Below, piece after piece: positions 561 to 49,900 of a stretch of DNA of 64,000 bases (position 1 is the first letter of the stretch; the number at the start of each line of letters is the position of its first letter). The stretch spans positions 9,920,001-9,984,000 of the forward strand of contig CM102287.1 in assembly GCA_046563655.1 (NCBI GenBank), written 5' to 3'. Below the pieces are notes generated by a model. That model ran no database searches. It worked only from the letters and a program-made list of their open reading frames with translations, and was not told where the DNA came from. The translations under genes were made by a program, and so were the position numbers. The stretch comes from Yuukianura sp. NJ FZ-2021. Taxonomy: Eukaryota.

Positions 561-1516
561 CTACGGTTGATTATGGTGAGTTTCTGGCGTTTTTTTGTTA
601 GGGTCAGCCGGGGTCACTGGATTTGTGTCCACTTTGACTTGGTTGATGGATTCCAGTTGTTCTGGAGGAATGTTGGCCTGTGATTGGTCCAGATTTGCCT
701 CCGAAGGCGGGGCATTCGTTGGCTGTACTGCACTGCGAGTCTTCTTCAGCTTGATGTCCTTGATGAGCAGAAACATGAGCACTGCGTCCAAAATTCGAAA
801 TGCCAAGATGACGCCAAGCATTCCCCAGTAAGCCACTTTTTCCAAAGCCGTGACATTGCCGAACGTAAAGATGTAGCTGCATGGCACAAAGTTCAGCACG
901 GTAATCACAACAATCACGAAACACCAAGCACGACCCATTGTGTGGTTTTCCTGAAACAAAAACAAGGCCAAAGGTCAAAAGTTTTTCCAAAAAAAAAAGT
1001 TTGAAGTGTTACCTGCCAGCCAGCAAAGGTGTAGACAATGTACACCATGACAGAGAGAGTGAAGATGATGACTTGCCAAGTCCAAAAAATCACTAAAATG
1101 AAACATTTTTTCAACAAACGGTTTCAAAATTTTGAAATTCCAAGATGACCTTTGACCTCTGCGTGGACTTACCACGAACAGTGACCCCAATGACTTCGTG
1201 CAGGCGCTCTTGGACATAATCTTTGGTGAAGGTGGAGGACGGTTTTGTACAATTGTCATGGATTGACAGCGCTTCCTTTTCAGTGTCCCGTTTTTTTTCG
1301 GCGTTAGACAGGTACACGGCAGACACAATCGTCAGAATGACATAGAGGAGCTGGAAGGTCAAATCAAAATTTTGAAAACCGAAATTTTGAAAAATGGATT
1401 TTTAAAATTTTGAAACTCACCAAACCCAGTCCTCCGGCGATCATCACCCATTGACCCTTGGTCAACTGCGACAGCGATTTCCGTTTCCTCTTCGGCAGTG
1501 TTTTAGGTGGAGCCAT
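561..1516 (-). CDS. Four-exon, ~4-TM membrane protein (tetraspan/LAPTM-like topology), copy A
   Basis: Hand-spliced exons 1516-1421, 1350-1173, 1092-1013, 950-561 with GT..AG introns, phases 0/1/0 and an open frame: MAPPKTLPKRKRKSLSQLTKGQWVMIAGGLGL|LLYVILTIVSAVYLS...|VIFWTWQVIIFTLSVMVYIVYTFAGWQ|ENHTMGRAWCFVIVV...; four hydrophobic segments. Confidence 0.75.
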
Positions 1517-1831
1517 TTTTAAAGTTTAGAAAATCCTAAAAATCTTAGAAGAGTTTCTAAAAAATTTCGAAATTCTAAAATTCACTTCCAAAGGTTGAGT
1601 GAAAAGACACTTTGCGTTTGATAGAAAAATGAAAATGGATAACTGTTGCGTGTTTGCCAGGACATAAAAAAGTCAATAAAATGTTATTTTTAAACAAAAT
1701 CAAAGAAACTCGTGAGAAATTGTTGGTTGCTACGACAACAACAACCAATGGGAAACGGAATTTGGTTTCTGAAATGATCTGGTATGGTTTTGGCTAAACC
1801 AAATCTGGTACAAAACCAGAAATTTTGGTAA

Positions 1832-3053: not shown

Positions 3054-3627
3054 TTAGTGGGGTTGGGCTGGCTGTATCGCTGGTTTCGGTTTCCGTCCAA
3101 CAACGAATTCTTGGTACATTGAGTACAGGACCCCCAAGGTCACTGCGCCCACAACTGCCCCTTGGGCCATCAGTCGAGTATGGATGAGGTACACGGACAC
3201 TTTCGTATTGCCTCGGTTCTTGAACTGACGGGCCGAATAGGCCAGAGCCGCTATACCACCAGCGATTCCTATCGATTAAAGTAAAATTATGCATTAATAT
3301 ATTATTTCAATCATACTTTTATCAATAGTTGACCTTTGACCTTCTACAGTGACATTCTACTCACTCTTGTACTTGTTACAGTATTATCATTGCATAAACG
3401 ATTACTCAAACTGATTACTCACCTATAGGAAACATTGGGTTTGACTTGATTTTTGCCATGAAGGAATTGTCCGTTTCCTCTTGCACTGGAACGTAGCCAT
3501 AATCCGGTACCTAAAGCAGCATTCAATACCAACAATCGTTACAATTTGGTCAAAATTTTACAAAAACTATGCAATTTTGAAACTAATTTAGCATTTTACT
3601 AAAACTTACCCCTGTAGGAAGAGCCAT
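3054..3627 (-). CDS. HIGD1A: HIG1 domain family member 1 (mitochondrial hypoxia-inducible protein)
   Basis: Exons 3627-3610, 3510-3423, 3268-3054 (321 nt) give MALPTGVPDYGYVPVQEETDNSFMAKIKSNPMFPIGIAGGIAALAYSARQFKNRGNTKVSVYLIHTRLMAQGAVVGAVTLGVLYSMYQEF..., matching the HIGD1 pattern PIGIAG...RGNTKxSxxLIHxRxxAQGxVVGA. This frame is absent from the ORF track. Confidence 0.92.
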
Positions 3628-4234
3628 AACGTTGACGTTGAGTGAGATTGACCAATTGACAAACAGGCTGTAACTGTAGAGTCTAGACGAACGTTTCTTA
3701 CTGAATCAAAATAAACTGAATGGGCAAACAAGCTGACCTTTGACCTTTCCAATAAAACTAAGGTCAAATTTATGAATTACTTAATTGATTTTTGAGACGA
3801 GTTGCACTGCACGTACGCCTTTCTTCAGTGACAGCTGAAAGCCAAAAGGACCTTCAGCACAAAAAAAAATTCTCTCCTCACATGCTTTTCCTTTACGTCA
3901 CCCATTTCTATCTTGTACTTTTCCATACAGACATGCAGGGTTCTCACGTGACAATTGGAAAATTAATCAAACATTAACCTAATTAACAATTAACAATTAA
4001 CAATGAACAATTAAATTTAACACTTTCAATTAACTGGGTCAACATATTTATTAAACTGAGTTATAGAAACTTAGGACTTACGACGTCAACTGGACAACGG
4101 ACGACGTTTCATGGACGTCACGGGGATGACCGATTGAAGTTGACATAGTCGCCATGACATAAGTGACAAGTCAATTGGTTGACGAATGACATCGGCGACG
4201 AGGTCAAGTGACCTCGTATAAGTTGACCTCGAGG

Positions 4235-6161
4235 TCACAGAATTGGCGAAACATAGTCAGAGTCATCTTCCTTCTTCTTTTTCACTCCAGGTTTGGTTCC
4301 AGGCGTTCTGGAAGGCTTGACGACCATGGCCGCTGCTCTGGCAGCGGCTTCCGCCGCTTCTTTTTCTTCAACCTTCATCATCCATTCTTCTTCATGATCA
4401 AAAAAGAAGATCGTGTCTTCTCTTTCTTTCAAATCCTTCTTGATTTGTTGATGTTGCAACAGCAGTTGAATTTCCTTGAATCGCTCAATTTGTCTATCCA
4501 GCTCCACTAGTCTCTGCTTCTCCCAATCTTCATACAGTTTTTCCATTTCTGATACTTCTTGGTCACTCCTCTGAGTTATGGCTGAATCCAACTGTTCAGT
4601 GACCTTTGACACCAAAGTGACCTCTGATGTAGTGAATTTGGATGTTTGCAAAAGTTCCTTGACTCGTGGAATTGGTTCAGATGTTTGAGAATTCCAGTTG
4701 AGCCGGTCAAATGCTGCTGCAACCTCGGCTGGTTCCGGATTCATACCGATGACTGGACGTAGATTTGGTTTGGCCAGTTTCTTATCCGGAGAACCCTCGA
4801 TTTGCGCTAGTCGAGCTTCAGCAAGTGCTTCAACTTTTTTCAACTAAAAAAAAACAAAATTGGTTAACTTTTTAGAAAATGTAAAAAATGTGAGATTGGA
4901 CGTACAACTTCGGAGTAAATCGGCTTCTTTGTGTCTCGAAGATGACTGAGACGCTGTTCCAATTTGAGCCATTTATCATACAAGGCCCAACCGTAAACTT
5001 CAACTGAATTTGCAAGAACTTCGTCTTCCTGAATTTGGAGTCCAGCGTAGGCTAAAGTCTTGCCAACTATTGACTGTGGCTCCGTAAGTTCAAAATGGTC
5101 ATCAAAATATGGATTTCGTAAAAACTTGACACGGTACTTGACCTGCGGAAAAAATTCAAGGTCAAAAAATGTCAAAAGACAAACTTTTTTTTCTTACTTC
5201 TTCCTTGTTATCATCTTCTGCTTCCGGTTCTTGTTCCCAAGCTCCAACTGGAACATCGGTTTCCAGTAACTTGAGGCAAGAAAGAATTGCAAAGAATTTT
5301 GTAGTCGGTGGCCCAAAATCTTCTTGTAACATCAGCAATCCAGCGACCTTGGCAGAATCTACGAGAAACTGGAAAAGTGAACCTCGACGGAACAAAAATA
5401 CTGGAACGTAAACGAATTTAAAACGTTACCTTTGTAGTTGCCTTCACTTAGGAACTTGTCCATGAGGAGATTAGCGGTGTAGTAGTCTAGAAAGACACCG
5501 TAATTCATCCGATCGTTGAGAATTCTAAACAACATGTCTGTTTTGTCAAGATGAACAAGAGTTCTTATGAAGGCATGAGAAGTGGATGGGAGAGTGTCAA
5601 TTGCAGATGGAGATTTCCGAAGTCTGTAGATCAATTCCTCCATTTCTTCCAGATTTTCTTCTTCAGTGACTTTGTTGACGTACTGCAAAAAAAAAAAATT
5701 AGTATTTCATGTGTCGACTCTCCTAAATAATATATTTTTGTGGATTTGAAAGCTAACCAAGTCAACGTCAATGGGACTAATGACTTTGTCTGGCTGGTAC
5801 TTCAAGTCCATTTGGTAAAACATGTCCTCTGCAAATCAGGAAATCAAACAATCATCAATTCACAATGTGAATTTCACATTACTTCAAAGCAATCACAATT
5901 AGTATTAGTGGTCATACCGAGTTCCACTTTTCTGAGAATCGGTGTGTCCAGCCTTCCTTCCCATTTCTGTTGACACAAATATGTCGGTGGTAGTTTGGGA
6001 CCAAGAGAAGTCTTTCCAGTTTCAGATTCCGTCGACTGGAATGTTGGACAGGACAAACTGAGTTTACGAATGGAATAACCATGGTGGCAGTTTTGATGTC
6101 GCTGCAATGTAATGGCAGCAAAGCATCCTCGACGCATTAATCCTCCTAACTTCCAATTCAT
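4235..6161 (-). CDS. MRPS27: Mitochondrial small-subunit ribosomal protein S27 (PPR-like)
   Basis: Exons 6161-5918, 5828-5758, 5682-5430, 5358-5198, 5142-4906, 4843-4235 (~524 aa); motifs SPIDVDL, LPSTSHAFIR, NYGVFLDYYTANLLMDKFL, VKFLRNPYFDDHFEL..IVGKTL; basic N-terminal presequence. Confidence 0.88.
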
Positions 6162-7318: not shown

Positions 7319-7878
7319 ATGAGTGAAAGAACAGCGAGATTTATGCGGGTAAGTTCAAATCGCTGATTTAGTTACATTGTTGTTAATTATAGTAATTAAT
7401 TAAATTAAAACTAATTTAAACTTAGAATAATTCAAACGTAATTGAAATTGGCAGTTGTTTGCTGAGAGACCGTTGGGTGCTGCAGTGGAGCTGGAGCTGC
7501 GTGACTCCAGTCAGCGTCCCGCTGGAATCGAGAATCCGTTTGTGATCACAACACTGATCGCTGGAGTGGGCGGAGTCACGCTCACAATCATCATAATGCT
7601 CAGCATCTGGATTCTGAGGAAAGCAGCAGTCAGAGGTCAAAGGTCAAGGTCAACTGAAAGGTCGGCAGAGGAAGGACAACGTCACACTGTCACAAACACA
7701 CAAACTCAAATTTCAAAATGTGCTGACCCTGCTGACCTTCCAAGAGCGTCAAATCAGTCACAACTTCCAAAATGGCCTAAAGAAACTCCAGGTAAAACAC
7801 GATTTTCAAAAATCTGTCCAAAGATTTTCAAAAATTCCAAACTAAAGTTTCTGAAAAATCTCTCTTTTTACAGTTTAA
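7319..7878 (+). CDS. Small single-pass membrane protein, unknown family
   Basis: Exons 7319-7348, 7455-7791, 7874-7878 (GT..AG, in frame); TM segment FVITTLIAGVGGVTLTIIIMLSIWIL followed by RK. Confidence 0.55.
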
Positions 7879-8682: not shown

Positions 8683-10570
8683 TTAGACTTTGAGGGATTT
8701 AGGATCGAGTAAAATTTCAGCGGTGTCGGTTGCTTGTGCTTGTGCTAACGCTGCTGCAGCAGCTAAGCGCTCTTGCTGCAGTCGCTCCAGACGCTGATTG
8801 AGCTCCATCTGGTGAGCACGGTGGGCTTGGGCCATTGACCTTGACATCTCACTCTCAAACTCATCTTCGTCGCTAGAATCTTCTGGAAGGTCAAAGGTCA
8901 AAGTCAAAGGGTCATGGGTTAATGGTTAAAAGTGAAGGGTTAATTCTGCGAGGGTCAAGGGTTAACGTACCGATGAAGTTAGGTACGGTAGACTGAGCTC
9001 GTTGAGTTGTTTGAGAAGATTGACCCGATTGACCCGTCAAGGTCACTCGTGGGGTAAAAGGCTCCACCCCTTTTTGTTGTTTAGTGTTTGTGTTACTCGT
9101 GTGCCCATTCTGGGGTACCATACTACTTCCAGCCACCACTTTAATGCTCTCAGAGGCAGTCAATTTCGAACGTCTTCAAAAAATTCAAATTCAAATTAAA
9201 AAAAAAATAATGCAAAATTTTGGAAATTTTTGGAAATTTTAGTGGTTTACCTTATCTTTGGCCATTGAAATAACCTGGGGCAGGTACATTGCATAATCTT
9301 GTACACTACGCAAGTGAGTCCCACCAAACACAAAATAGGACCAATCAGCTTCAGCTCTAAAGTTTTGAATCCTTGGACACAAAAACTCGAAAAAATTTCA
9401 AATTTTTTTCAAAATTGTTCAAAAAATTTTGCTTTCTAAAAGATTTACCTTTATCACCCAATCCAACAAACGTTATAACAGATCCCATGCACACTGAAAA
9501 AATATTTCAAAAATACACGCCTTTTGAAAAACAGTCAAATTTCGCTTAACAGGTTTCGGAGATCTCGTAGGTGCTTGGGGCATTTGAAGAGTATTGATAT
9601 TTTTCCAAATTTTTGAAACAACAAAATTTTCAAAATTTTGAACAAAATTTGAAATTTGAGCATACCTAAAACAAGGCCAATGTAGACAACGGAGTATGAC
9701 TGCTGTGATTCGAAATTTCCATCTGGTTCGCTCCCATCGAAGGACTGTGACAGAAGCTGCGAAAATGAAAACAAAAATTATCTCGAGGATAATTTCGGGA
9801 TAATTTGATCAAAATTATCCCACTTTCGATAATTTGACTTAGATTTTTTACCTTGGTTGTTTTTTGAACAAATTCAGTTTTACTGTTAGATTTTTTGAGA
9901 GAAGTTGGTGACTTTCGGCTAAGGTCAACAGACGAGTCAAAACCATCTTTACTTGCACTGTTGTACACAACCTACACAAGAATAAACATCAACTACTACA
10001 ACAAACAACTAACTTCAAGGTCAAAGGTCACGCACCAAAAAACAAAAAAGTCTTCCAAAACTTTTTTCATAATTTCGAAAACCGAAATTTCGGTTTTTAC
10101 CCAGTTCGGCCGGAACTGTGGGAACGGAGCTATAGAGACATAAGCTAAATGCGGAATCAGTTCCGCCGCTGCTCCTACTGCATTTTTCTTTTGTTTCTTC
10201 TCCTTCACACCAACTTTCTTCTTCAACATGGACGCAATCACAGCCGCCATTTTCAAATTTTAGCAAAGGTCACGAGGTCACACAAGCACAAAACTCAAAC
10301 TCAAAGGTCAAAGGTCACACCGACTTTTTACAAAAAACACAAAGACAGAGACAGAAAACAAAAACAAGAACTTTCTCTCCTCATCTCATCTTTCACTTTT
10401 TAGAAATACTGTTTTTGCAAACTTTTTTTGCGACTTTTTTTTTGCAAATTAAAAATTGCAAAGATTGAACTCACCTCTGCCAAGCTTTCTTCTCGATTGG
10501 CCTCTGCACTTTCGTTTCTTTTGCGCTCACGCTCTTTTCGCGTTCGGATGATCGCCCCTGCCAGGGCCAT
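8683..10570 (-). CDS. TMEM200-like two-TM protein with two candidate first exons
   Basis: First exon 10570-10475 or 10250-10101, then 9971-9852, 9756-9666, 9493-9449, 9371-9251, 9173-8971, 8882-8683, all in frame; core VVYIGLVLVCMGSVITFVGLGDKGFKTLELKLIGPILCLVGLTCVVYKIMQC is a TM-loop-'KLIGP'-TM hairpin resembling TMEM200-type proteins. Confidence 0.7.
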
Positions 10571-10859: not shown

Positions 10860-10879
10860 TCGGTTGCCATGGCAACCGA
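10860..10879. promoter_or_regulatory. Perfect RFX X-box palindrome
   Basis: TCGGTTGCCATGGCAACCGA, a 20-bp perfect palindrome containing the canonical X-box GTTGCCATGGCAAC, between divergent genes. Confidence 0.7.
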
Positions 10880-11312: not shown

Positions 11313-14256
11313 ATGGATTCTGAATCTGCCCGAGAGAATGAAATCGGCAGCGTTCCGGTTCCTGAATCCAACGAAGTGGAAAGTGAAAGTCAGTCCAGTG
11401 AAACCAGAAACGACGAAAATTTTGGAGTTTTGGCGACAAGTGAAAATCTGGTTGATGCTGTTCAAAATGTCACTGATGTTGTTCAAAATGTCGCCAATGT
11501 CGTTCAAAATGTCGTCGATGTTATTCAAAATGTCGCAGAAGATGGAACTCAAACGCTAGCAGAAGAAGGGAATTCTGTAAAAAAAAAAAAACTTTCTGAA
11601 ATTCTTGAAGATTTTTAAATTGTTAGAAACACTTTTGCTTAAAATTTTTTAGAACACAGTCATTCCTCGGACGTTTTCGCACGACACGAATCTGAATGTC
11701 GTAGAGTGCTACGACATTTTTTGGGATGCACGCTGCGACGGTTCGTCCAAGTCGCAACTCCACTCGTTTCTGCATCAAGACGCTCCGTGTCGGTTCATCG
11801 TTCCTCCCGATCTGGAATTTCAAATCTACCTAGAAACTAATGGTAACGTACAAAAATGCTGACTTTGCTGACCTTCTGACTTTGCTGACTTTTGATCTTC
11901 TGACTTTTTCAGGTCAGCCTAGCAAGGTCGCGAGCCCTCCAGCATCGGAAGAGACAAGCATTTACTACGACGCTCTTGAGACGCAGGCCGAAGACGAGAG
12001 CGACGACGACAGTGTGTCGTACACCATTGGAGGCGGAGTTAAGCCGAGAAAGAGAAGTTGTGTGGCGGTGAGCTGGTTTCAAAATAAAATTTTATGAAAT
12101 TTTTCGAAATTTCGGAAAACCCTTTTTTTGAAATCTCAATATTGGCGACATTACCTAGTCCAGAAATGGTGCTGTTGCTGTTGTCGTAAACCAGAGAAAT
12201 ACGAAGAACCGGAAGACGACATCGATGACACTTTGTTTCTAGCGACCGACGACACCAAATCGACAACGCAAGACAAGGCCACATCTGACACCAACACAGT
12301 TTCTAAAGCGTACGTCAAAAGTCATCACAAAATATGTTAAAACGAAGTTAAAAGTTAAAATTTTGTGTTAAAAGTCGGAGCAACCGCAGACTTCGCTCAG
12401 CCAAGAGCAAAGTTTCTTCTAAAGCTGTCAACGTCGCCTCGAGAGACTTCGGCCCCGCGAAATTGCCACACGAACGACGCAAGCGCGTTCCAGAAAGACC
12501 TGACAAAAACATGAGTTTGTGGGGCGTCCTCAAACATGCAATGAGCAAAGACATTTCACGGTAAGGTCAAAAGGCAAAAGTCAAAGGCAAAAAGTCAAAA
12601 GGCAAAAGTCAAATGCAAAAAGTCAAAAGGAAAAGTTGAAGTTAAAAGTTAAAAGTCAAAAGGCAAAAAGATGAAAGGCAAAAGTTAAAAGGCACAAGTT
12701 AAAAGTCAAAAGTCAAAAGGCAAAAGTCAAAAATTAAAAGTCAAAAAGCAAAAAGGAAAAGGTCAAAATTTTGCCTTCCACGTCAAATCCTTGTGTTGTT
12801 TCTAGGAGTCCACTTCCAGTACATTTTTCTGAACCGCTGTCCATGCTGCAGCGATTGGCAGAAGACTACGAATACAGCGATTTGCTGGACAAGGCTTCCA
12901 GATCGGAGGATGCACTGGAACAACTTTGCTATGTCGCAGCGTTCACTGTCGCAAGTTATTGCAACACAGCAGTAAGTAATTCCTGGAAACTAATTTTAGA
13001 AAAGGTGAAATTTTTTAAAATTTTTACTTTTTTTTCAAAATTTCAAGATTCGAACTTACAAGCCTTTTAATCCTCTGTTGGGTGAGACGTTTGAACTGGA
13101 CCGTATGGATGACATGGGATTTAAGTACATCAGTGAACAAGGTAGGCGTGACCTCTTGACCTTTCAATTTTTCTAGAAAACGTCTTTTAAAACAAGTTTT
13201 TCAAAAAGTAAGCCACCATCCACCAACGGCTGCTACACACTGCGAAGGCGCTGCTGGCTGGATATGCTGGCAGGATTTGACAATGTACAGCAAATGGCAC
13301 ATGAATACTTGCGATTTCAATCCTACTGGAGTTGCTCACTTGACATTTACCGCCAGCGGTAAGTAAACCTTGATCTTTTGTGACCTTGACCTTTGATGAC
13401 CTTGACCTTTCGTGACCTTGAAGGTCATCACTACACTTGGAAAAAGGTGACGACTGTGGTACATAATCTAATCATGGGGAAGCTTTGGGTTGACCAAGTT
13501 GGTGACGCGGTCGTCATCAATCACATTACCGGAGATACTTGCAAGCTCCAGTTTCTACCCAACGGAAGAAAGCAGGTAACTTTTTTGACCTCCGAGGCCA
13601 TGCTGGATGCTGACCTTTGACCTTTGCAGGTCACTGGGACAGTCGCAACAAAAAGTGGACAGGTCAAGATGACAATTTCTGGAAACTGGGATGATCAGCT
13701 CACCGCAACGCCCAAACCATCAGGATATCCCCTACTTCTGTGGAAAATCAAACGCCCTGCGTACGATTTCTGCAATTCAGAGGAAAAGTGTGACCTGCTT
13801 GACCTTTCTTTTATTTAGATCTGGCTCTGACAAGTACTACTACATGACCGAATTTGCATGTCAACTGAACGAAATGGAACCGGGAATAGCTCCGACCGAC
13901 TCCCGCCTTCGTCCAGATCAGCGTCTCATGGAGAACGGTCTGTTTGATGAAGCCAACGCTGAAAAGGGGAGACTGGAAGACAAGCAGCGACGAGAAGCGA
14001 AGAAGTGGGAATCAGATGAGCCCAAAAGTGTATCGAGTAAGTTGAGCTGGACATGGAAATTTCAAAGGTCAAAGGTCACGGTTCGTCTTTTGAATTTTTA
14101 GGTAGCAGTGTCACAGTTCAGAAGAAACCATACACACCTCGATGGTTCAAAAAAGGGAAGGACGACACAACTTCTCAAGTTGGTTTCATCTATACTCAAA
14201 TGTACTGGGAACGGAAACGACAAAAGAATTGGTCAATGTGTCCTAACATTTACTAA
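11313..14256 (+). CDS. Oxysterol-binding protein family member (ORD domain, no PH domain seen)
   Basis: Multi-exon; ORD motifs [58 protein letters not shown] (split by intron 13142-13208), [39 protein letters not shown]. The N-terminal exons (11313-~12310) are less certain. Confidence 0.9.
11452..11538 (+). repeat. In-frame 21-bp coding tandem repeat (VQNVxDV x4)
   Basis: GTTCAAAATGTC...GAT/AAT units repeated with period 21 in the first exon of the OSBP-family gene. Confidence 0.8.
12562..12770 (+). repeat. Intronic degenerate ~6-7/13-bp tandem repeat (AAAGGC/AAAGTC)
   Basis: aaggtcaaaaggcaaaagtcaaaggcaaaaagtc... fills most of an OSBP intron. Confidence 0.85.
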
Positions 14257-18322: not shown

Positions 18323-19396
18323 ATGGATAACTTCAAATCAGCTGAGGATGCAGCTCGGTTCTGGATGGAACAGGCCAACAATTACAAAGCGCAGTGAGTC
18401 AATTGCCTTAAAATTAAGCTAATTGTTGATTAACTAATTGAGTTCAACTAATCGTTTGCAATTCTGCGTACTGTAGATTAGAAGCCGTTAGCCGAGAATA
18501 TGCCGAATTCGTAGAGGGGTCAAAGGCCCTTGAAAACGAACTTGAACTTGACTTGCAACAGAATGTGGCCAAAAACAGGGACTTGAATGCGTGTGTGATT
18601 AAGCTCAAGAATGAAAACGAAGGACTAAGGGTAAGGAGAGGTCAAAGGTCAATGGTATTCTCAATCTCAAGTACTTGAAGGTAAATATTCTGTCGTTGTA
18701 TTTGTAGCATCGAGTAGACGTTCAGAATCAGAACGAAATTCGTCAACAGACGGAATCTTCACAAGAAACAGCCGCTCTTAGGAAGCAACTGGAGGAACTC
18801 AAACGTCAAATTCGTCAATTGGAACAAAACAACGACGACCTTGAGAAAAGAAACAGAGCTGCCCAGCAAAGTATCGATGACCTGGACACTAAAATCAACG
18901 GGATCATTGAAAGAAACGCTATTCTGGAAAGTGAGTTGGACGAAAAGGAGCAACTGAAGATTCTTGCACAACGATTTCGAGACGAAAGTAGAGGTAACGT
19001 ATACAGAACTTCTCAATTAACACAATTAATTGAGAATTTGCTAATTAACTGATTAATTGTTTGTCCTTTGCAGATCTCCGTTCCGAACTGCAGGTTATTC
19101 GACAGCAAGCTCAAACGCCAGCTCCGCAAGATTCAAATCGGACTGAAATTCAAGTGCCTCCTGCAGGTAATCAGATTCTCCAAAAAACTAACATTTTTCA
19201 GAATTTTTTGAAAAAGTTGATAACTCGTTTTCGTTTTTTCTCTTTTTTAGTTCGTGTCAGGTCAAATCCGATTTCGATTGTGAACGATCTACTAAGAAAA
19301 GTTGGAGTAATTGAGAACAAGCTGGCTGCTGCTGCCTGTCATCGCAGAGAGGATCAACCTTCCAAGAGGTTCGTCCTTTCTAACAAAAACAATTAG
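18323..19396 (+). CDS. nudE: Nuclear distribution protein NudE (NDE1/NDEL1 family)
   Basis: Five exons: EYAEFVEGSKALENELELDL, IRQLEQNNDDLEKRNR, IERNAILESELDEKEQL..QRFRDESRDLRSELQV, ISIVNDLLRKVGVIENKLA. Confidence 0.93.
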
Positions 19397-20782
19397 AAAA
19401 TATCCAATTATCTCAACTTAGCTGAGATAATTTATCTCCAATTATCTTCAATTATCCCTGGCAGTCTAAGATCTCTCTCCGCACAGCTTCTTAGTTTCTT
19501 CTTGTAGCATAGAAAGCACTGTGTAGTTAGCTCTATTTACTCTGTATGTCTTGTCTTGGCTTTTACTCACACATTTATTTTTTGAAAACGTTTTTCTGCT
19601 TCTATAAAAACGTAGTTTTTCAATAATCGTTTTTGACAGCTCTTGATTCTTCCTTTTGTCTTGTTTCTTTTTACTCTGTTCACTTTGTAGACAGAAACGG
19701 TGGACGGCTGAGAAAGTGAATTAATCAAGGAATGCATCAAATTCAGAAAAAAAGTCGATTTTTGTCCCTTGTCCTTTTCAAAAACTTTTTTGTAGAAAAG
19801 TATTTCCTGCTCCCACCACAACAAATGCTGGCAGTACTCCTGAACCACGAATACACTTTACAACAGTAGGCGGTGTGGGAACGATTAATTCAGTGAGCAA
19901 CCACACGGCCCCTGCCATGACACCGTTCTACGTTGACAAAAAAGACACCGACAGTCGCCGTAGTCCTTTCTGTTGTTTCTCTGTAATTAACTAAAATCTA
20001 ATTAGTTTCACTTTTAAGTTACACCCGTAAACTATTACTAAAATTGCGCAATTTTAGTTACAACTTACAACGCATTAACACCTCAAAAGTAGTAAGGGCT
20101 TGAGAACGTTAAACTGCGGAGGTCAAAGGTCACGTTAGGTCAAGGTAATCGTAAACCCTAACATTGTAATAACAGCCCCTTTTCTGCATTTATGTTTAAA
20201 TTTTTAAATAAGTTAAAAAATTTAATTTAAAGTTAATCCATTTAATCAAAACCAGTCATTAATTGGACGATCAATTATTTTCTAGTTTATATTTTAAAAC
20301 ACACAAAGTGTTACTAATCGAGAAAAAAAAAATTTCAGCCCGGCATGTAATGAACTATGGTTGTTTGTTGGGAATAAAATCAGGCTATTTTGATATTTTT
20401 AAAAACGTTTTAAATTTTCAATCAACCAAACGCAAACGTTTTTTTCACAATTTATTACCGGACTTGTTTCAAACGGGTTTCAAAAGTTTGAAGTTTTACA
20501 ACGAATTAAACTTATTTTAAATACAATTACACTACGAAGCTCCATTTAGGTACATTTTCTACATGTTTTACATTTACACATGTGCTAAATTTACACATGT
20601 GTGTAAATGTGACATCTAAATTACATGTGTGGTGAATTCGTTTTCTGCGTTGAAAGCAAATTGAAGGATTCTCGGTTACAATTAGTCTGTCTTTCTCTTG
20701 TAGTTTCTCGAATTTTCAACTTTCGAAAAATTTTTCAATTTTTGAAAAAATTTAAATCTGAATTGGTTCCATTGTGAGTGAT

Positions 20783-28900: not shown

Positions 28901-31900
28901 TGCCTGGTAAGTTTCGACTTTCAATGTGGATCCAGGTTTTGAACAATTTTGAATTCGTGCGATTTCATGTGAAATTTAAGAATCGAAGCATTTGAAGTTG
29001 AGATTACACGGATTTTTCACTTTTTCAAGAATTTCAAGAAACACGAATTTTTCACTTTTTCAAGAACTTTAAACAACTCTGAAAATTTTTTTCCGAAGAG
29101 CTACTGCCGCCTCGGGCTTACACCAAAATGTTGCCACGAATGGTGGGATCACGTTTTGGTGGGTTTCATTGGGGCGTTCATGTGAAATTCAAAAACAGGA
29201 CCATTTGAAGTTGAAATTAACATGAATTTTTTAAAAAATTAAAAATCTAACTTCGCAAATTTTTTTCTTAGGTCTTCCTGACTCTGACCCTCGAAATTCG
29301 CGCGTCGTGCGTTCAATCAACGCCCAGCGTCTTTTGGTGTGTTCGTGGCGTTCAATGCGTGACATTTGCATGCTGCTGACTGAAATGCTGGAAGTATTTC
29401 CAACACAAGGAGAGCGGGATCAGTTCGTTTTTAATGTTGAAGAAGTGGAGATGATCGGAGATCACTTGCTCTTTCTCCTCAAGAACGTCATGCACCGTGG
29501 CGTTTTTGAACAAGTTTTTACTGGATTCAAGCACTTGGCGTACCGTCTGTTCAAATCCACTTGTGGCAAATTGAATGCTCTGCCGCTGAAATGGTTGAAT
29601 GACGCCTTTGATCAAGAACTAATTAGCACCAAGTGCTTTACTCGCAGGAGTGCTGGTCTCCCATTCATTTTTAAAGTAACCAAAACTTCAAAATTTCAAA
29701 AGAATTTCAAAATTTTGGTTTTTGAGTAAAATTTTTCAATTTTTGTTTGAATTTTAGGCTCTCTTGTCTCCAATGCGTCTGAACGAACCGTTCATAGCAA
29801 AACACGTTGATAAAATTTTTGAAACTTATGAAAATGCAGCGATTTCCAGCGATTCCAGTTACGTTCGGATTCACTGTACAAATGTGCTGCGTGGGTTGTT
29901 CAAAGACGCTGATTTTTCGCGTGTGATGATGCCATATGTACCTAAAGGACTCAAATTAGTTTTTGATCAATTGAAATCTCACAACTGGAATGTAAGTAAA
30001 ATGTTAGATTTTTGAACTTTTTGGAATTTTTTGGAAAAAACTATGATTTTGTCATTTGCTGTTTCTTTTTAGGAATGCAATGCTGGGCTAATGTTATATG
30101 GATCGATTATTCGAAGAACATTTGGACCTGAATTGAACCTAATGACGGCTCCAACGTTCTTTAGAAGATTTCCAGAAATGTATGAATTTCTACTGGAACT
30201 GGTCCGGAGTTGCGCAGAAGCGGTGACCTTTGACCTCAAACTGCAGCAAAAACAGTATCGACCGGCAGATGACTTTACTTATCAAGTTTTACTTTTGTTG
30301 TCAGCGTTTGCTGTGACTGGAGTCGTGGAATATGGACCGCTGAAGGTAAAAAGTGTGACATTATACCTGGAAAATTTCGAAATTTTGTAAAATTTCAATT
30401 TTTTTTGTTGCTTTTTTGGTAAATTTTTAGATTTCTGAATTCGTTGAACCAATTCGAACTTGTGCTGCCAGTGCGGACTACCAAGTGAGAGAAATGGCAG
30501 CGAAAGCACTGAAACCATTTTTGATTCAAAACAGTTCCAAAGTGGATCTCATTTTGAAAATTTTGGAAGAATATGCTGGACGCCATTTTAAAAAAAGCTC
30601 GAACGCTATTCATGGAGATTTTCTACAAGTGAGTTTGTTCTGCGGTTTCGAACGTCTTTTCGAATTTTGTTAAAATTTTCAATTTTTCAAAATTTTATTT
30701 TTTCCAGATTTTACAAATTTTGAAAAGTCTGCCCCAAGAAGAACCGAAACAAAAAATAATTGATGCTTTTCGATCCACTTTTACAATCCAAAGTCCGTTG
30801 TGGGAATGCGTATGTCCGACGGTATACGAATCTTTAGCTGAGATTTGTCTCTACTTTGGACCAACTTTGAAATCCGTCCACACCAATCTTCAACATTTTT
30901 ATGCCGTGACCTTTGACCTTGACCTCTCCGTGACCTTTGACCTCAAGGTCAGTCGCTGCTCATTCCCAGGCCTGGCAAATGCTGATGATGTTCTCGCTCA
31001 AGCAGAAGTTGAATTTACTCTGCACGAATCTAATGCTGAAGAAGTGATTTATGATTGGGTGAATTCCAGACCGTGGGAATTTTTAGTCCAACTGTTCAGT
31101 GTTCTCTGTTCAAAAAAATACTTGGACAGCTCAAATCCAGAAGTACTGGTGATATTTGATGCTGCCGTGAGAAGATACTTGCAAGAACAGTTTCAGTATC
31201 CAGCACAAATGGTTGCGGAGGAAGCAGTGTTGGAGTTTTTGGCCAGGGGAGATTCAAATATCTACGAAGTTTGGAGTCAAGTGAAAATCGCTGAAAATTC
31301 AGCGATTACGAAGCATTTGCTGCAAAAAGTTTTGGAAATTTGTCAATCTGAGGTTGGCACGATGGAATGCAAAGCTCGAGCGCTGATTGTGCTTGGGAAA
31401 TTGTCGTTCCAGACAAACCAAACGCTGCTTACTTCAGTAAGACTAAAAAATTTTGATGTTGTTGGTTGTGGATGAGCTTTAAATTGTAACTTTCAAAATT
31501 TGTGATTTTTAAAATTTAGAATTTTTTTTGAAATTTAGACCGAAACGGGAGCCTTGTGTGAAATTTTGAGTACTTTGTGTGACTCCAGTTATGACTTGGA
31601 TCTGAGACTGGGTGTAGCAAAATCGCTTCCGTCGCTGCCGTTTACCCAAATTCAAAATTTTACCGGTACGAAAATACTTTTTTATGAAAAAAGTTGGGAG
31701 TTCCATCTTATCTGTGTGTTAATTTTGAAATTTGACTTTAGTTTTGGAACAATCTAAAATTTGGTATGCCGTTTTGACGCTGATGCTGGATGACGAAGGA
31801 GCAGTACGAAATGAAATCAATGCGAAACTGGGAGAAGACGATTCAGAATTTTCTGAAAGTTTAGAACCTTCTGAAGGCGGCAAAAGTCGATTTTGTGAGA

Positions 31901-33345: not shown

Positions 33346-34499
33346 TGGCATGGCTCATTCCACTGAAATGGGTGAAAGTAAAAGTCAGAAGTTAGTTGAT
33401 CGGGAATATTGGAGGGGCTATGACAAATGAGCACTTAGCGTCAACTCCATATTCGTCCTATTTTTTCATTTCCGTCAATAGGAGCCCATTGTTTCCAACC
33501 CATTTAACCATTATTACCAATATCTCTCTCCCCTCTTATTCATTTCCCTACTTTCCGAAAAACGTGTGTTTTCTCAAAATTTTGAAAATGCTTAGGAGAA
33601 AGCATTTTTTAGAAGAAAGCTGGGAGGAAGATGATGATGGAGGGGAAGCGATACATGGGGAGACCTTAACTGCAGGGACAGTGACAAAGTGCGACTCTAA
33701 ATATTCTTCTACCTCACAGATCCACTGAACTACTTTCTCCAGCTACTTTCTCCAGGAAAGTAAAAAACTAATGTAAAAAAGTCTAACCTAACGAAAAAAG
33801 TCAAGTCGAGAGTCAGTCAAGCAAAAACTAAAAAATTATGGAACTAAAAAGCTCCAGCCCAACCTTCTCTTGCCATTTTTCCTGCTTTAAAAAATTTCTA
33901 GACAGTTTCCGATTTAAAAAACTGGATTTTTTAGAAAAGGGCAACAAATTTATAACTCTACATTTTTTAATCAATATTGTCCTTTTTTTTATGTACAGAT
34001 CTATAAACAAGGTCAAAGGTCAATTTTTGCAAAATTTTGAAAAGCTGCAGAACAAACCTCCAGGCTTTGACATTAGCCTGAAGGATTAACTTTTTTTTAA
34101 ACTTTTTTTTTCTAAATTAAGCTTCCTTTTTAAGTTCTTTTTGAAGTTTTGGCATATAAAGACAAAGAAAATTCTAAAATTCTTTTTTTCGTTTTCATTT
34201 TTCCTCAAAAACTTTCCTTTTCATCTAAAAACTGCCTGACTTTTTAATTTTAAGCAAGTACGAAATTAAGGCACATTTTCTCTCTCATCTCCTCATAACA
34301 ATTTCTATGGTTTAAAAAAGTTGGGGAATGGACTTTTTAGGAAATCTTTAATCGGAGTTGCTAAAAACCGGAATGACCTTTGACCTTTTGCTCCAGAGGT
34401 CAATCGTGCATAAAAAGAAGTTGAGTTGGACGCATGCGTAGAATGGGAGGGAAAACGACCGTGTTGCGGATGGTTTCGTAAGGAGGGTTGTCGGTATCA

Positions 34500-34930: not shown

Positions 34931-37900
34931 TCATAATCTCTCCAGCTCCGTAGTCGTCGTCAGAGACGGATGAAGCCCCGTTTCTGTCGCAAGTGAGTAG
35001 TGACGATACGTCAAGAAGTCTGGACTCATGTGAGTAGGTGGAGTCGTGCCGTTGCCGTTTCTGTGCGGAGTGTAGGACTGATGATGATGATGATGATTGT
35101 TGTGGGACTGATGATATCCACCCAGTGTCCCCACATTGTTCGTCTCCTGAATCACATCACCCACTCGGTGGTCAATCTTCCCATTCTGAAATCACAACAA
35201 AGGCGTCACGAAATCAAAATTCAATAGAACCAAAACTGATTTGTCCACAAGATGGTCGTAACTTTCTCAAAAAACCGAATTTTTTCAAAACGCCTGCTTT
35301 TTTCATCCTACCTGTTGTTGTCTGAACCGTCTTCTTTTTCTGACTTTGACACAAGCGAGAGTCGTGACGAAAATAACAAAAACAACTAAGCCCACGACTG
35401 CTCCCACCAGCACGCCCATCCGACGGTGTAAAATTGACACTTTCTCGCTCTCGTCTTCGCCCAGCGTCCGAATCTGACAAAAAACAACAAAATTGACATT
35501 TGGAAGAAAAAAAATAGTTTTTTTGCAACTTTTTTTTTTTTTGAAAAAACTGACCTGAGCACATTTTGAAAGCGGAGAATCTCGAAGAAGCGATGATGCT
35601 GGTCGTGTTGTCAACGCAGTTAAGACGCTGGAGTTGTTGACTTCGTGATGTGACAGACCAAGGACACAGACCAAGTAGGGCGTGTCCGGCTCAAGGTCAG
35701 GGAGCAAGTAGAATCGTGATGTGGCCGGAAGGGGGCGTGTCCGCACGATGTCGTTGTGATTCAAAGCGTGAAATGCTATGACATAACCTTGCATTCCGGA
35801 ATTGTTGCGACCTTGCCAAGAAACTACTGCAGAAGACGGTCTCACATCCTGCAACATTAAAAAAAAATTTAGAAATCCAAAATTTTAAATCTCCAAATTC
35901 TCAAGTTTCAAGATTCTTTGAAATTTCAGGGTATTTGAGTTTCTAATTTCTAGATTTTTGCACTACTGCATGAGTTCTGGTGGGGAAAAAAAAACTTTTT
36001 CTCTGATTTTTTTCTGTCTAAATTTTAGTGAAAGTTGAGATTAGAAAACAACATTTTTTTTAAAAATCTGCGCACGTTTTGGTGAAACATTTTGACAAGA
36101 CTGTTGAGAAGCGTTGTTGAAGCACGTAAAAAGTGTGTTGGATGGAGAGGTTCCAGCTTCAAGTTGAACGCTGAAAAATTAATGATCATCAAAATGATTT
36201 CACTCTTCCGCTTTTTGTTTCATCGGAACAGCAACTGAGAAGTTGGAGAAAGTCTCTCCACACTCCAGGATTTCTTCCGACATCACGAGAACTAAAAAAA
36301 AATTTCTGAAATTTTTTTTTCAGAAAACACATTTTGTGAAACTCTGTTACAACTCTAACGTTTCCCCCAGAGAAAAAGAAAGCATCCGTTTCCTGTATCT
36401 TCTCACCAAGGGGTCGCTCATTAATTAGACAATTCACAACACACCACCATCAATCTCCTCTTCCTCTTCATTTTAACTTTTCTAAAAAATCCACTTCAAC
36501 ACAATTTCAATTTCCTTTTTCAAAAAAAAAATATAGATTTTTTCAAAAACTAACTTTTGTCTTCTGCCTACTTTTCAACTTTCTCCAATTATTTCTAAAA
36601 CACTCAGTTTTTCTTCTCTCTTTTTTCTTTCTCTCTTAGCTCCTCCCCTTTTTTAAATTTTGGTTCTTCACTTTTTACTTTGGTGAAAGTTGAAACTTGA
36701 AAATTCAAATATTGGCGCGTAAAAAATCAATATGGAGAAAGTTTAGAGCGGTTGAAGGGAACTGTTGATGAGAAGTAAAAAAGAAAGGAGACGAGGGTTG
36801 AAGAGGTCGTTAATTCTGATGATGACTTTCACTTGCCACGGAGCATCTTCACTCCTTTCACTAACCTAACCATAGCCTAATGTTAGCCTAACGTTAACCT
36901 AACCATAGCCTAACCAAATCCTAACTTCCTGGAAGAAGTCCTAACGGAGTATCTCAACATTAAAACTTTGGGAGTTAAAATTTGCATGGAAAGTTGAGTC
37001 ATTTCAAGTGTAGTTTCACTTGCATTTTGTAAAAGAAAAGTCAAATTTCTCTCTTTTTCCTCAAAACTTGGCTTTTGATATCCTCTACATTCCTAGTCCA
37101 CACTTAATTAACGCTCATAAATCATGTTTTCAGAAATTAGGACAGATTTTGAGAAGAAAAAATTTTGGGAATAAAAATGATGCTATGGAGTTGATGACAG
37201 GAGACTTTTGATGACCAAAGTTTACAACTTGTGACGAGGAGAAAGTTAAAACTTTGCTAGTTGGAGAGAAAAACTCTCATTAAGCTCCTCACTTTCATCC
37301 ATTTAATACCGTAACTTCTCTCTAACGAAGTTTTCAAAAAAAAAAACGGGAGTTTTTTTGATCATGGTAGGGATTTGGTCTACAGAAATTTAACACAGAA
37401 ATGGTTTAGAGAAGGGTGGCAATGGTTACCTGAATAGCGAGTTTGACAATTGCTGGCATCGAGCACAGTGTTGGCAAATCCGCATCCAGAATGAGGCGGC
37501 CACGACGCTCCTCGGGTCTTTCGCAGTGAAAATTCGGCACGCCCGGCCCAGCTACCGAAGTTGCAAAAACTTTCGGATGGGCTGACAACCACTCCCAGAA
37601 GTCCTTGCTTTCACAGTCACAGCTCAGTGGATTCTCTACAAACAACAAAACACAAAGGTCAAAGGTCAATGACCTCAAAAGGTCAAAGGTCAAATTTTCG
37701 AAGGTCAAGTTAGAAAAAGAATCACCGGGCGAAGAAGATCAACTTTTAGATTTCAATTGAACCCAGTTCAGTTTCTTTTCTAGAAAATCCTGTGCCATGT
37801 TAAGACCTAAAAAAAGCGCGGGAAAGTCTTAGAATTTGAAAGTGGGCGGGAGAGACAAATGGGATTTAAGCACTTGGAATGATGAGACGGACTTTGGGCT

Positions 37901-46900: not shown

Positions 46901-49900
46901 TTTTATAAAAAAAAATTTAATGCGAAGAATTTTTTTTTATATTTTAATTCGCGTTATAGTATAACGCGAAGAATATCCTGATATTTCTCGAGCAGACTGC
47001 TCGAAGAATATCCTGGTATTTCTCGAGCAGACTGCTCGAAGAATATCCTGGTATTTCTCGAGCAGACTGCTCGAAGAATATCCTGGTATTTCTCGAGCAG
47101 ACTGCTCGAGAATATCCTGGTATTTCTCGAGCAGACTGCTCGAAGAATATCCTGGTATTTCTCGAGCAGACTGCTCGAAGAATTATCCTGGCATTTCTCG
47201 AGCAGACTGCTCGAAGAATATCCTGGTATTTCTCGAGCAGACTGCTCGAGAATTATCCTAGTATTTTTCGAGCAGACTGCTCGAAGAATATCCTGGTATT
47301 TCTCGAGCAGACTGCTCGAGAATTATCCTAGTATTTTTCGAGCAGACTGCTCGAAGAATATCCTGGTATTTCTCGAGCAGACTGCTCGAAGAATATCCTG
47401 GTATTTCTCGAGCAGACTGCTCGAAGAATATCCTGGTATTTCTCGAGCAGACTGCTCGAAGAATATCCTGGTATTTCTCGAGCAGACTGCTCGAAGAATA
47501 TCCTGGTATTTCTCGAGCAGACTGCTCGAAGAATATCCTGGTATTTCTCGAGCAGACTGCTCGAAGAATATCCTGGTATTTCTCGAGCAGACTGCTCGAA
47601 GAATATCCTGGTATTTCTCGAGCAGACTGCTCGAAGAATATCCTGGTATTTCTCGAGCAGACTGCTCGAAGAATATCCTGGTATTTCTCGAGCAGACTGC
47701 TCGAAGAATATCCTGGTATTTCTCGAGCAGACTGCTCGAAGAATATCCTGGTATTTCTCGAGCAGACTGCTCGGAGAACATCCTGGTATTTCTCGAGCAG
47801 ACTGCTCGAAGAATATCCTGGTATTTCTCGAGCAGTCTGCTCGAGAAAAAACCGAAAAAATAATCATCTAGTAAATCACAGCTCTTTTGTTATTTTGGAC
47901 TTCTCTCGCTGCGTTATACGCCGATAAATAGGGTACAAGTTTTTGGCAAAAATTTCTTTAAAAAATTCCGAAAAAATTAAAAATTCCATAAAATTTTATG
48001 ATTCAAGAAATTTCAGCCTCCAAAATTTTTTTCAGTGATTCTGGATATTACCTCTACTGCAGCGATTTGATTCGAAGCCAAATTGAGTTCTTCCAGGAAC
48101 GGCAACTGGGAAAACAGTTTGGCCTGGACAGTTCGCAGCGCGTTGAAGCTCAAGTCAATGTACTGGATCGCTTTCAGCGATTGGCTAAACGCTTGAGCAT
48201 GAATAGAACTCAGATTATTTTTGGGTAAGTACAGCCTCTCCAAGTTATGGAGTCCAGTGAAACTCAAAGGGCCGAGCCATGACAACAAATTATTTCCCAA
48301 AAAGAGAATCGTGAGTGAACTTTGATTAGCAAAAGCCCCGTCGTCAATGACTTTAATTTGATTGTGTCCAAGCGACAGCGACGACAGTTCAGTCCCTGGA
48401 AGGCTCTCGGCCGACAGTCGCTCAAGGGCGTTTCTACTCAGACTTATATGTCTTAGGGTCTTCAGGCTGTCCAGCCCTTCGATGATACTGAGTCGGTTGT
48501 TTTCCAAGTACACCTCTTCCAGTACTGGCAGCACATCCAGTACTCCGGACAGTATCGTCGTGATTTCGTTATTTTGGAGTCTCAGTTCCCTTAAAGACTT
48601 GCAGTTATGAAATGTTCCTGGAACTATTTTGGAAAGGAGATTGCCATCCAAACTGAGTGAAGTCAGGAATTCATTGTACAAAAACAGATCTTGTGGAATG
48701 ACGCTCAAAAAGTTATCTGAAAGTCGAATTTCACTCAAATTTCGAAACGGACTAAACAATCCGGCTTCTACAAATCGAAGTGCGTTTTGTTGCAAGTAGA
48801 TGACTTGGACTTGACTTGATCCCTGAAAAGTCCCGGCTTGAAGATGAACCAAATTATTTCCATTTAGAAACACTTCTTTCAGTTCTGTTAGATTGTTAAA
48901 CACAATTTGAGGAATCGTGTGAATGTGATTGTTGCTTAAATCGATCGTAACAATGTGTGGAGTTGATCTGAAGATGAATTCCTTCAATTCCTGGATCTTA
49001 TTGTGACTCATGTCCAGAGATTCCAGAAAAGTTAGTCCAAAAAGAGCATCTTCTGACACAACCTCAAGTGAATTCAAATGAAGTGAAAGTGTTCTGAGGT
49101 TTCCCATTCTGGCAAAAGTGGCTCCATCTAGTTTCTTCAAGTAATTGGAGTTGAGGTTGAGGTGTCTGAGTAGTGGCCAGTCCAAGTCAGCATGACTTCG
49201 GGAAATGCTGGAACTACTGGCAGCATTTCCAGTATCTCCGACGAGTACTGACAGTTCGGAGAGCTCATTCCAGGCCAAGTTGAGCGTAGACAGGAGACGG
49301 AGACGCTTGAGTGCTAGGAATGGGAACAAGCGGAGTTTGTTTTCTGACATGTCAATGTCCATCAAAGTCTCCTCCAGGCCCCAGAAAGCGTGTTCAGACA
49401 CGTTCTCTAATTGATTCCCCTTCAACACGACCTCAAATTCAACAAAACGAAACGATTTCAGCAAAAAAATTTAAAAGATCCAATTTCGGATACTCCTGAT
49501 GCTTGGATTTGTCAGAGGTCAAAGGTCAAGGTCACTCTCGGGTCAAGCTCTATAGCTTACCTTCTGAAGCAGGATGTTGTGGAAACTGTACGGACCAAGT
49601 TCCTGGATTTGGTTTCCTTCAAAGTCAAGCTGAAACAAAAAATTTAAAAATTAATTAATTTAAAAAATAATAAAAAAATAAAATTAATTAATTAAATTAA
49701 CTAATTTTTAAAATTAAGTCCTCGTGATTTCCGTGCCACTTCCTTCTAACTGAACTATCAAAACTTTTTTTTATTAAAATTTTCTCCTAAAATTTTGACA
49801 AACGCCTAACTTTGATATGAATTGAAACACTTTTTTAATAATCGATTAACTTTTAGTCATGTTTTTAATTAATTAATTAAGATTAATTAACTTACGGTTT

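Follow-up and report, generated by a model that had tools for sequence, protein, structure and literature searches.

The stretch analysed here, called the window throughout, comprises 64,000 nucleotides of Yuukianura sp. NJ FZ-2021 (GenBank assembly GCA_046563655.1, contig CM102287.1, positions 9,920,001 to 9,984,000 of the forward strand). Genes recognised with Pfam encode MRP-S27, a HIG1-domain protein (HIG_1_N in exon 3, E = 9.3e-10), OSBP, NUDE, a DHHC palmitoyltransferase, an O-fucosyltransferase, THADA/Trm732, an fn3 protein and three leucine-rich-repeat proteins. Among these genes lies the 13-mer AGGTCAAAGGTCA, two AGGTCA half-sites in direct repeat with a one-nucleotide spacer (DR1), which was found letter-perfect 19 times, 11 times on the + strand and 8 times on the − strand. 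A sequence-only reading of this DNA had reported at least 19 perfect copies in mixed orientation; all were recovered at the 19 coordinates it had given. Contexts were assigned by our own reading of splice sites and start codons. Codon-usage scoring of individual copies separated coding from non-coding sequence poorly and was used as weak support only. The copies are as follows.

1146..1158, − strand: exact DR1, intronic (80-nt intron) in a (−) multi-pass membrane-protein gene; sense, 14 nt past the GTAAGT donor
3330..3342, − strand: exact DR1, mid-intron, in intron 2 (154 nt) of the small (−) HIG1-domain gene; sense
3734..3746, − strand: exact DR1, promoter-proximal, ~107 nt 5' of the HIG1-domain ATG (3627); TCAGT 15 nt downstream
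7634..7646, + strand: exact DR1 with a DR0 unit after it, in a 149-codon open frame, sense; probably coding
8888..8900, + strand: exact DR1, antisense to a (−) gene; pyrimidine stretch immediately 5' of a ..TCCAG acceptor
10018..10030, + strand: exact DR1, in the first intron of the (−) gene with its ATG at 10250; antisense, ~21 nt before the first candidate acceptor
10305..10317, + strand: exact DR1 55 nt 5' of the ATG at 10250, in the gap between this divergent (−) gene and OSBP
13611..13623, − strand: exact DR1 at the 3' end of a 54-nt OSBP intron; antisense, TTGCAG directly after
14066..14078, + strand: exact DR1, central in an OSBP intron of 65 nt; sense
18639..18651, + strand: exact DR1 in the second intron (77 nt) of NUDE (ATG 18323); sense, 8 nt into the intron
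20120..20132, + strand: exact DR1 with one additional half-site; non-coding, where the NUDE and DHHC genes converge
30224..30236, − strand: exact DR1 in THADA coding sequence, read VTFDL, in a length-variable loop
30907..30943, − strand: exact DR1 twice (30907 and 30931; spacing 24 nt), both coding in THADA; 6 half-sites at the spot
34010..34022, + strand: exact DR1 in AT-rich sequence without coding signal
34374..34386, − strand: exact DR1 in non-coding sequence, 364 nt from the 34010 copy and facing it
37656..37692, + strand: exact DR1 twice (37656 and 37680; spacing 24 nt), within a 6-half-site cluster; A/C-rich tract before, low codon score
49516..49528, + strand: exact DR1 with a DR0 unit, intronic in a (−) leucine-rich-repeat gene and antisense to it; intron limits ambiguous
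965..977, + strand: one-mismatch copy AGGCCAAAGGTCA, intronic in the (−) membrane-protein gene and within the 3' part of that intron; antisense

By context the 19 exact copies divide into 8 intronic, 2 promoter-proximal, 1 intergenic between convergent genes, 4 without coding signal, 3 in THADA coding sequence and 1 probably coding. The last of these, at 7634, translates as GQRSRS just past a predicted membrane helix, in an open frame without a Pfam match. Introns holding copies are 54-154 nt long. The copy at 10305 is adjoined by two GGTCAC half-sites.

The excess of exact DR1 in the window is real and statistically overwhelming. No exact copy was obtained in 100 dinucleotide-preserving shuffles. 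With up to two mismatches allowed, 33 matches were counted, where the shuffles averaged 2.51 and never exceeded 8. Sorted by mismatch number (0, 1, 2 and 3), the matches numbered 19, 6, 8 and 51, compared with 0, 0.05, 2.35 and 22.1 in simulation. Once one 35-nt tandem array is set aside, AGGTCAAAGGTCA is the most frequent 13-mer of the window, with a density of about one exact site per 2.6 kb across 50 kb. The spacer base is A in every exact copy (19/19), so that a CAAAG core is always present; the base at −1 is likewise a purine in all 19, and the base that follows is C in 7 of the 19. The word CAAAGGTCA occurs 31 times where 0.79 occurrences were expected. One-mismatch copies start at 965, 6573, 8127, 14626, 52785 and 63969. 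Four of these six had been pointed out by the earlier reading (all except 14626 and 52785), and a fifth near-copy that it had named, at 4600, carries two mismatches. A sequencing or adaptor artefact was rejected as the source of the copies, since reading frames run open through those in coding sequence and the inserted blocks are multiples of three.

The half-site itself is also strongly enriched. AGGTCA/TGACCT was counted 136 times against 25.4 expected under a second-order Markov model (z about 22) and ranks first for over-representation among 2080 strand-collapsed hexamers; its 18 single-letter variants occur at 0.37 to 1.71 times expectation. Neighbouring half-sites are arranged as DR1 in 19 cases, DR0 in 5, DR2 in 3, DR3 in 1 and as a palindromic IR1 pair in 1, so DR1 is the dominant arrangement and head-to-tail order is favoured over the palindrome. 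The 98 half-sites outside the exact copies are mostly true singles, whose adjoining sequence resembles a second half at background level. They are preceded by a purine in 82 of 98 cases and followed by A or C in 77 of 98, and isolated half-sites and DR1 halves bear the same flanks. From these common flanks the basic unit looks like purine-AGGTCA-A/C, occurring alone or as a head-to-tail pair around a shared middle A.

Homotypic clusters of 3-6 half-sites were found at 15 spots, and the half-site clusters named in the sequence-only reading were recovered: six half-sites lie between 13381 and 13427, and 26022/26030 form a DR2 pair. The first of these is built as follows.

13381..13427, − strand: 6 half-sites with a 16-nt period, 3.4 units

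It occupies most of a ~64-nt OSBP intron, and its last half-site spans the acceptor as AG/GTCA (the slash marks the splice junction). The same arrangement, acceptor AG plus the first four exon bases, is seen in two consecutive OSBP introns, at 13422-13427 and 13628-13633. Four half-sites in alternating orientation lie directly 3' of the MRP-S27 stop codon, at 4201-4237. In OSBP a candidate 31-nt intron at 13788-13818 consists largely of two TGACCT half-sites and a T-rich tail; it is needed because two conserved coding frames must join, and 31 nt is unusually short for an arthropod intron.

The exact copies are confined to 1-50 kb, and none lies in 50-64 kb. Half-site density follows the same course, at about 2.3-2.6 per kb before 50 kb and 0.86 per kb after. 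By our own arithmetic the chance of an empty last 14 kb under uniformity is (50/64)^19, or about 0.009. Three stretches are free of exact DR1 (20.2-30.2 kb, 37.7-49.5 kb and 50-64 kb), so the earlier description of a window-wide saturation was overstated, as these empty stretches and the low probability of the empty end together indicate. Its statement that most genes have a copy in or near them is roughly correct for 1-38 kb only. The final 14 kb are richer in AT and hold fewer long open frames, and for this reason the fall in density after 50 kb may simply track gene density. Two pairs of exact copies (30907/30931 and 37656/37680) are spaced at 24 nt and four pairs at 287-455 nt; gaps below 460 nt number 6, compared with about 2.8 expected on our own estimate, which amounts to weak pairing.

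Within introns, orientation varies with position. Seven of the eight intronic copies could be placed, the intron around 49516 being ambiguous. The four sense copies (1146, 3330, 14066 and 18639) lie at relative intron positions of 0.10-0.63. The final third of the intron holds the three antisense copies (8888, 10018 and 13611), of which two abut the acceptor, and the antisense one-mismatch copy at 965 follows their pattern. Read in antisense, DR1 is pyrimidine-rich and without AG. Under the AG-exclusion rule a motif is tolerated only where no AG is added before the acceptor, and the observed polarity is the one expected if the word is tolerated only where splice signals stay undisturbed. In this small sample the orientation of intronic DR1 therefore appears to follow splice constraints.

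Coding copies were examined in THADA against the homologue of Orchesella. Only one antisense frame of DR1 lacks TGA, and all three THADA copies accordingly read VTFDL. For the copy at 30224, BLASTP placed an 8-residue gap exactly opposite VTFDLKLQ; the loop is of variable length in the multiple alignment and differs also in two relatives. For the copy at 30907 a 9-residue gap lies opposite VTFDLDLSV, and the pair 30907/30931 reads as a duplicated 8-codon unit (VTFDLDLS, VTFDLKVS). These gaps were placed in variable regions by alignments of 24% and 55% identity. On the evidence of the gaps and of the duplicated 24-nt unit, the THADA copies are best read as sitting at short in-frame insertions in probably unconstrained, variable stretches of the protein.

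Half-sites in coding sequence were counted against shuffles that preserve each protein and its codon usage. In a lenient set of 4126 codons, 28 half-sites were found versus 7.7 ± 2.4, ranking 1 of 2080 hexamers; with the DR1-bearing exons removed, 20 remained versus 6.6 ± 2.2, a count that none of 2000 shuffles reached. Both lenient sets include two half-sites, at 13791 and 13800, that are probably within the tiny OSBP intron. The strict set was limited to stretches matched by Pfam or by a homologue (3672 codons) and gave 20 half-sites versus 5.3 ± 2.2 (rank 2). Without DR1-bearing stretches it gave 12 versus 4.2 ± 1.9 (rank 11), reached in 0 of 400 shuffles, with 5 of the 12 supplied by one leucine-rich-repeat gene. 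Coding half-site density in the strict set is about half of the non-coding density. The excess over synonymous shuffles indicates that the pressure reaches coding sequence, more weakly.

Origin by transposition or by tandem repetition was also examined. For the flanks, the motif and the half-sites were masked, 250 nt on either side of the 19 copies were compared all against all with BLAST, and pairs closer than 600 nt were dropped. The 99 pairs obtained were weak and all out of register with the motif, and their number falls within the 26-162 pairs given by 20 random sets of 19 sites. Self-BLAST of the window returned no duplicated segment containing an exact DR1 copy. The flanks thus share nothing above chance and the exact copies are not a transposon family, in agreement with the earlier claim of unrelated flanks without a transposon. 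The common flanks expected of a MITE, Helitron or other transposon family were not found, and the 13-mers are best regarded as separate sites, each formed where it stands and without a transposon vehicle. An (AGGTCAA)n heptanucleotide microsatellite was rejected because no exact copy (0 of 19) is extended by a further unit at a distance of 7 nt and 3-unit arrays are absent. Generic slippage was rejected because no period-7 13-mer outside the DR1 phases exceeds 3 copies. Interstitial repeats added by telomerase were rejected on the fixed phase and length of the word and the lack of 3-unit arrays, the telomere-like repeats of the window being of the TTAGG type. These last are short and internal (CCTAA/TTAGG-type, at 36862-36925 and 60923); TTAGG is the arthropod telomere unit. 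One degenerate period-7 array is present.

12566..12753, + strand: (GTCAAAA)x26, 71% matches, inside the OSBP gene

Its unit is one base off the DR1 heptamer unit and yields AAGTCA-type half-sites. A local duplicate of 155-162 nt with 88% identity (14621-14775 and 16285-16446) carries only a degenerate DR1 in both copies and is thus uninformative on gain or loss of the motif.

Metagenome contigs were scanned for two DR1 copies within 30 nt, which gave at least 120 loci; pair spacings were inspected where they are not a multiple of 7. The loci listed are either period-7 arrays, many of 3-9 units and from unrelated, often high-GC organisms, or belong to repeat families of JAAUXW/JAAUYA contigs. 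In these contigs (GC about 0.40) DR1 is present as 2-4 copies spaced 19-23 nt apart, within at least two repeat families with conserved flanks.

JAAUXW/JAAUYA family one: loci L011, L012, L014, L040, L057, L065, L068, L109 and L112
JAAUXW/JAAUYA family two: loci L017, L026, L034, L036, L041, L066, L081, L083 and L098

Their host is a eukaryote that bears DR1 on mobile or satellite-like elements. Pfam searches of 18 of the 32 longest open reading frames of those contigs returned generic eukaryotic domains only. Comparison of the window with the loci listed gave no kinship beyond the motif (9 short blastn and 4 low-complexity tblastx matches).

Proteins of the window have their closest matches at 51-56% identity in the protein collection searched. 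The DHHC palmitoyltransferase, a single-exon open reading frame of 456 codons, has its best named matches in springtails, namely Orchesella cincta (52%), O. dallaii (55%) and Folsomia candida (35% over 94% of the query), with insects and crustaceans next. Nine homologues were retrieved with the THADA exon (DUF2428), the best named being that of Orchesella cincta at 51%. Together with the TTAGG-type repeats, these matches to Collembola mark the DNA as that of a springtail-like hexapod. The C-terminal THADA open reading frame as query found no homologue, and a protein-guided scan with the THADA exon found no match in genome contigs or viral contigs. Two of the leucine-rich-repeat genes have between them 25 repeats of a 35-nt unit (46967-47844; 96% identity), across which all six frames are open.

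Two further words recur in the window. The word GGAGGGAGTAACTA(T) has 14 exact occurrences, mostly in two clusters with ~31-nt spacing and variable spacers, plus two singles.

GGAGGGAGTAACTA(T): clusters at 32814-33345 (− strand) and 41498-41604 (+ strand), singles at 57422 (+ strand) and 62017 (− strand)

The clusters look like another, putative homotypic binding-site array. The word AAATTTTGAA has 40 sites, often as the palindrome TTCAAAATTTTGAA and many within short introns. Two DR1 copies, those at 1146 and 34010, have this word within a few bases of them.

AAATTTTGAA, examples: 152, 1123, 1367-1405, 2709, 9629, 32056-32071 and 34032

DR1 is preferred by COUP-TF/Svp, RXR/USP and TR2/4/HR78 as it is by HNF4. 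In PMC3252374 the DR1 consensus for HNF4alpha is given as 5'-AGGTCAaAGGTCA-3', to which the word of the window is identical, as the earlier reading had recognised in calling it the consensus DR1 site. According to the same paper, HNF4alpha binds DR1 as a homodimer and is present in every animal examined, and the CAAAG core is the most important part of the HNF4 DR1 (PMC3252374). The spacing, the CAAAG core and the 5' purine of a DR1 response element are found in 19 of 19 copies. With NR2-group DR1 elements the window shares the identity to the consensus, the direct repeat spaced by 1 nt, the CAAAG core, the purine 5' of the half-sites and the half-site clusters; it differs in holding a perfect site per ~2.6 kb, in the preponderance of exact over degenerate copies, in sites within internal introns and coding sequence, and in a half-site excess at the synonymous level. 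Over a million HNF4 sites lie in Alu repeats of the human genome, as that paper reports (PMC3252374). These HNF4alpha/RAR sites resemble the present ones in being very many receptor sites scattered through genes, but they lie in a recognisable transposon and are mostly off the strict consensus (PMC3252374), whereas the window sites have no common flank and a perfect consensus. In the literature collection searched, no paper combines AGGTCA with Collembola; the other matches listed concern vertebrate HNF4/PPAR or are unrelated, and no published description of such a DR1 pattern was found.

Other systems in which short words recur were compared. Chromosome-wide recruitment motifs are known from Drosophila (MSL recognition elements with CLAMP) and from C. 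elegans (rex/MEX). These and the window have in common the enrichment of a short word across a large domain, within gene bodies as well as 3' regions and in both orientations. MSL and rex motifs differ in being degenerate, in having far fewer strong sites per length and in being identified by their enrichment on a single chromosome, where the present data cover one 64-kb stretch. In bacterial uptake sequences (DUS/USS) exact copies far outnumber near-copies. The window shares with them the exact excess, the unrelated flanks, genic copies in permitted frames and a signal against synonymous shuffles, and an excess of exact over one-mismatch copies, coding copies and a synonymous excess are all found within it. 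It differs in being part of an animal nuclear genome without DNA-uptake biology, in the format of the word, which is that of a receptor dimer, and in a coding density of about half the non-coding density. Drosophila core-promoter Motif 1 (GGTCACACT-type) is bound by M1BP. Its GGTCAC core is shared, and GGTCACAC lies at 10276 and 10313 in the divergent promoter gap, but the window has 6 GGTCACAC words only and most DR1 copies are far from an ATG without a fixed relation to an initiator. A core-promoter element was rejected on the same grounds, as the copies have no fixed position relative to the initiator word and most are far from start codons.

The explanation that we place first, at a probability of roughly 45%, is that a gene-rich domain of the window is covered by a dense, selected landscape of putative sites to which an NR2-type receptor would bind with high affinity. 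The reader would be a dimeric receptor of the NR2 group acting on DR1, of HNF4, Seven-up/COUP-TF, USP/RXR or HR78/TR2-4 type. Around 100 single extended half-sites (purine-AGGTCA-A/C) would join the exact sites in one binding landscape, and sites would persist where they do not clash with other codes, with orientation in introns set by splice constraint and coding copies at variable stretches. Judged from the sequence, a candidate DR1-reading receptor dimer would be by far the most economical reader, given the 13/13 match to the consensus, the constant CAAAG, the dimer-sized format, the head-to-tail preference and the common flanks of the singles. A coincidence between an unrelated word and the DR1 consensus is very unlikely. 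The two promoter-proximal copies, 55 and ~107 nt 5' of an ATG, also count for a receptor. We infer a nuclear receptor as the reader, and further that its binding would feed transcription, that selection would keep the sites and that the landscape would extend beyond the window. Such a landscape would not consist of a few gene-specific response elements, because internal introns and coding sequence also hold sites; the earlier remark that the pattern is unlike gene-specific hormone regulation agrees with this and with the coding half-sites of the strict set.

Several observations weigh against a receptor landscape. The mismatch spectrum of DR1 is sharp and bimodal, with more exact than one-mismatch copies (19 versus 6), and populations of transcription-factor sites are mostly made up of degenerate variants. 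Classical weaker half-sites are scarcely enriched or fall below expectation (GGGTCA 1.57 times, AGTTCA 0.76 times). Many copies, in 3' regions or in introns late in the gene, are kilobases away from the nearest ATG, and the initiator word TCAGT follows within 60 nt in 1 of 19 copies, the random average being 1.3. Coding sequence holds at least 3 of the exact copies, and probably 4, and ordinary cis-regulation does not predict a coding half-site excess over synonymous shuffles. No nuclear-receptor gene was found by the Pfam scan of the 64 kb.

The main rival is non-adaptive seeding or drive, in which a lineage-specific process would write the word, splicing and protein constraints would filter what survives, and protein binding would be optional; candidate processes are short templated insertions, local tandem duplications and biased gene conversion favouring the motif. 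Seeding accounts at least as well as a receptor landscape for the surplus of exact copies, for the insertions in coding sequence, for the duplications at 24 nt and for the synonymous excess. The steep fall from exact to near-copies (19/6/8) resembles that of bacterial uptake sequences, all three THADA copies lie at or beside the 8- and 9-residue gaps relative to Orchesella in a protein whose loop varies in two relatives, both close pairs are spaced at exactly 24 nt with one of them a duplicated 8-codon unit, and related arrays exist in (GTCAAAA)x26 and in the 16-nt unit repeated 3.4 times. Yet seeding leaves the match to an exact receptor consensus unexplained, generic slippage is rejected on the scarcity of other period-7 13-mers, 3-unit arrays are lacking, and we know of no eukaryotic mechanism that writes one specific 13-mer; the THADA gaps depend on alignments of 24% and 55% identity, and the coding half-site excess draws 5 of its 12 strict non-DR1 sites from one leucine-rich-repeat gene. 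On balance seeding is somewhat unlikely. Active motif seeding had already been proposed in the sequence-only reading, and the THADA gaps and tandem pairs lend it some support as one rival among several. The same reading had also proposed a genome-wide structural code, with insulation, pairing or dosage compensation among its possible functions, and nothing in the evidence from the window points to any one of these. A mark of chromosome or domain identity, which would recruit architectural, insulator or dosage-compensation machinery through a nuclear receptor or a lineage-specific zinc-finger protein, is suggested by the restriction of exact copies to the first 50 kb and the lower half-site density beyond, by the spread of copies over gene bodies, 3' regions, exons and the vicinity of promoters in both orientations, and by the four pairs at 287-455 nt. 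Against it, the pairing is weak and the density drop may follow gene density, and we regard this mark as decidedly improbable.

Two further explanations were considered. Under a splicing role, the UGACCUUUGACCU strand would serve as branch point and polypyrimidine tract and the purine strand as an intronic enhancer near donors. The early position of sense copies, the late position of antisense copies and of the copy at 965, and the UGAC branch-like words on an antisense strand without AG are consistent with it, but the copies are few, that at 49516 is ambiguous, at least 11 of 19 lie outside introns, and tolerance under AG-exclusion alone predicts the same polarity. A single RNA-level role is ruled out because orientations are mixed within one gene, and the probability of a splicing signal is accordingly very small. 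The copies might alternatively descend from a single mobile-element or satellite family (MITE, Helitron or SINE tail) and be remnants whose flanks have eroded, as DR1 does ride on the JAAUXW/JAAUYA repeat families elsewhere. The masked flanks remain within the random range with their best matches out of register, the window has no match to those families beyond the motif, and a perfect core amid fully eroded flanks would itself need selection; a transposon-remnant origin is essentially excluded. More speculatively, and with a low probability, a letter-perfect word kept at kilobase density in introns, exons and spacers over a domain or chromosome could be self-propagating, for instance through biased gene conversion in favour of a break-resistant site that is bound tightly, or could be read for chromosome recognition by a co-opted receptor, for instance in sex-chromosome dosage or chromosome elimination, in either case as a eukaryotic counterpart of uptake or Chi words.

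The window thus presents a known kind of element, DR1, in an undescribed mode of occurrence. DR1 is the textbook gene-specific switch, and a perfect consensus every 2-3 kb, carried by no transposon and reaching into coding sequence, would be new. Should whole-genome counts show the density to be local or neutral, it would be a curiosity of one gene cluster. If a receptor landscape or a seeding process holds true, the finding would mean either that a nuclear receptor acts as a global, domain-wide reader or that a process writes a specific word into animal DNA. With four candidate receptors and one 13-mer, it would provide a system for asking how binding-site landscapes arise and persist. Sex-chromosome dosage and the control of chromosome elimination both exist in springtails, and dosage compensation and chromosome recognition in early-branching hexapods have, to our knowledge, not been studied at the sequence level; the DR1 pattern could bear on both.

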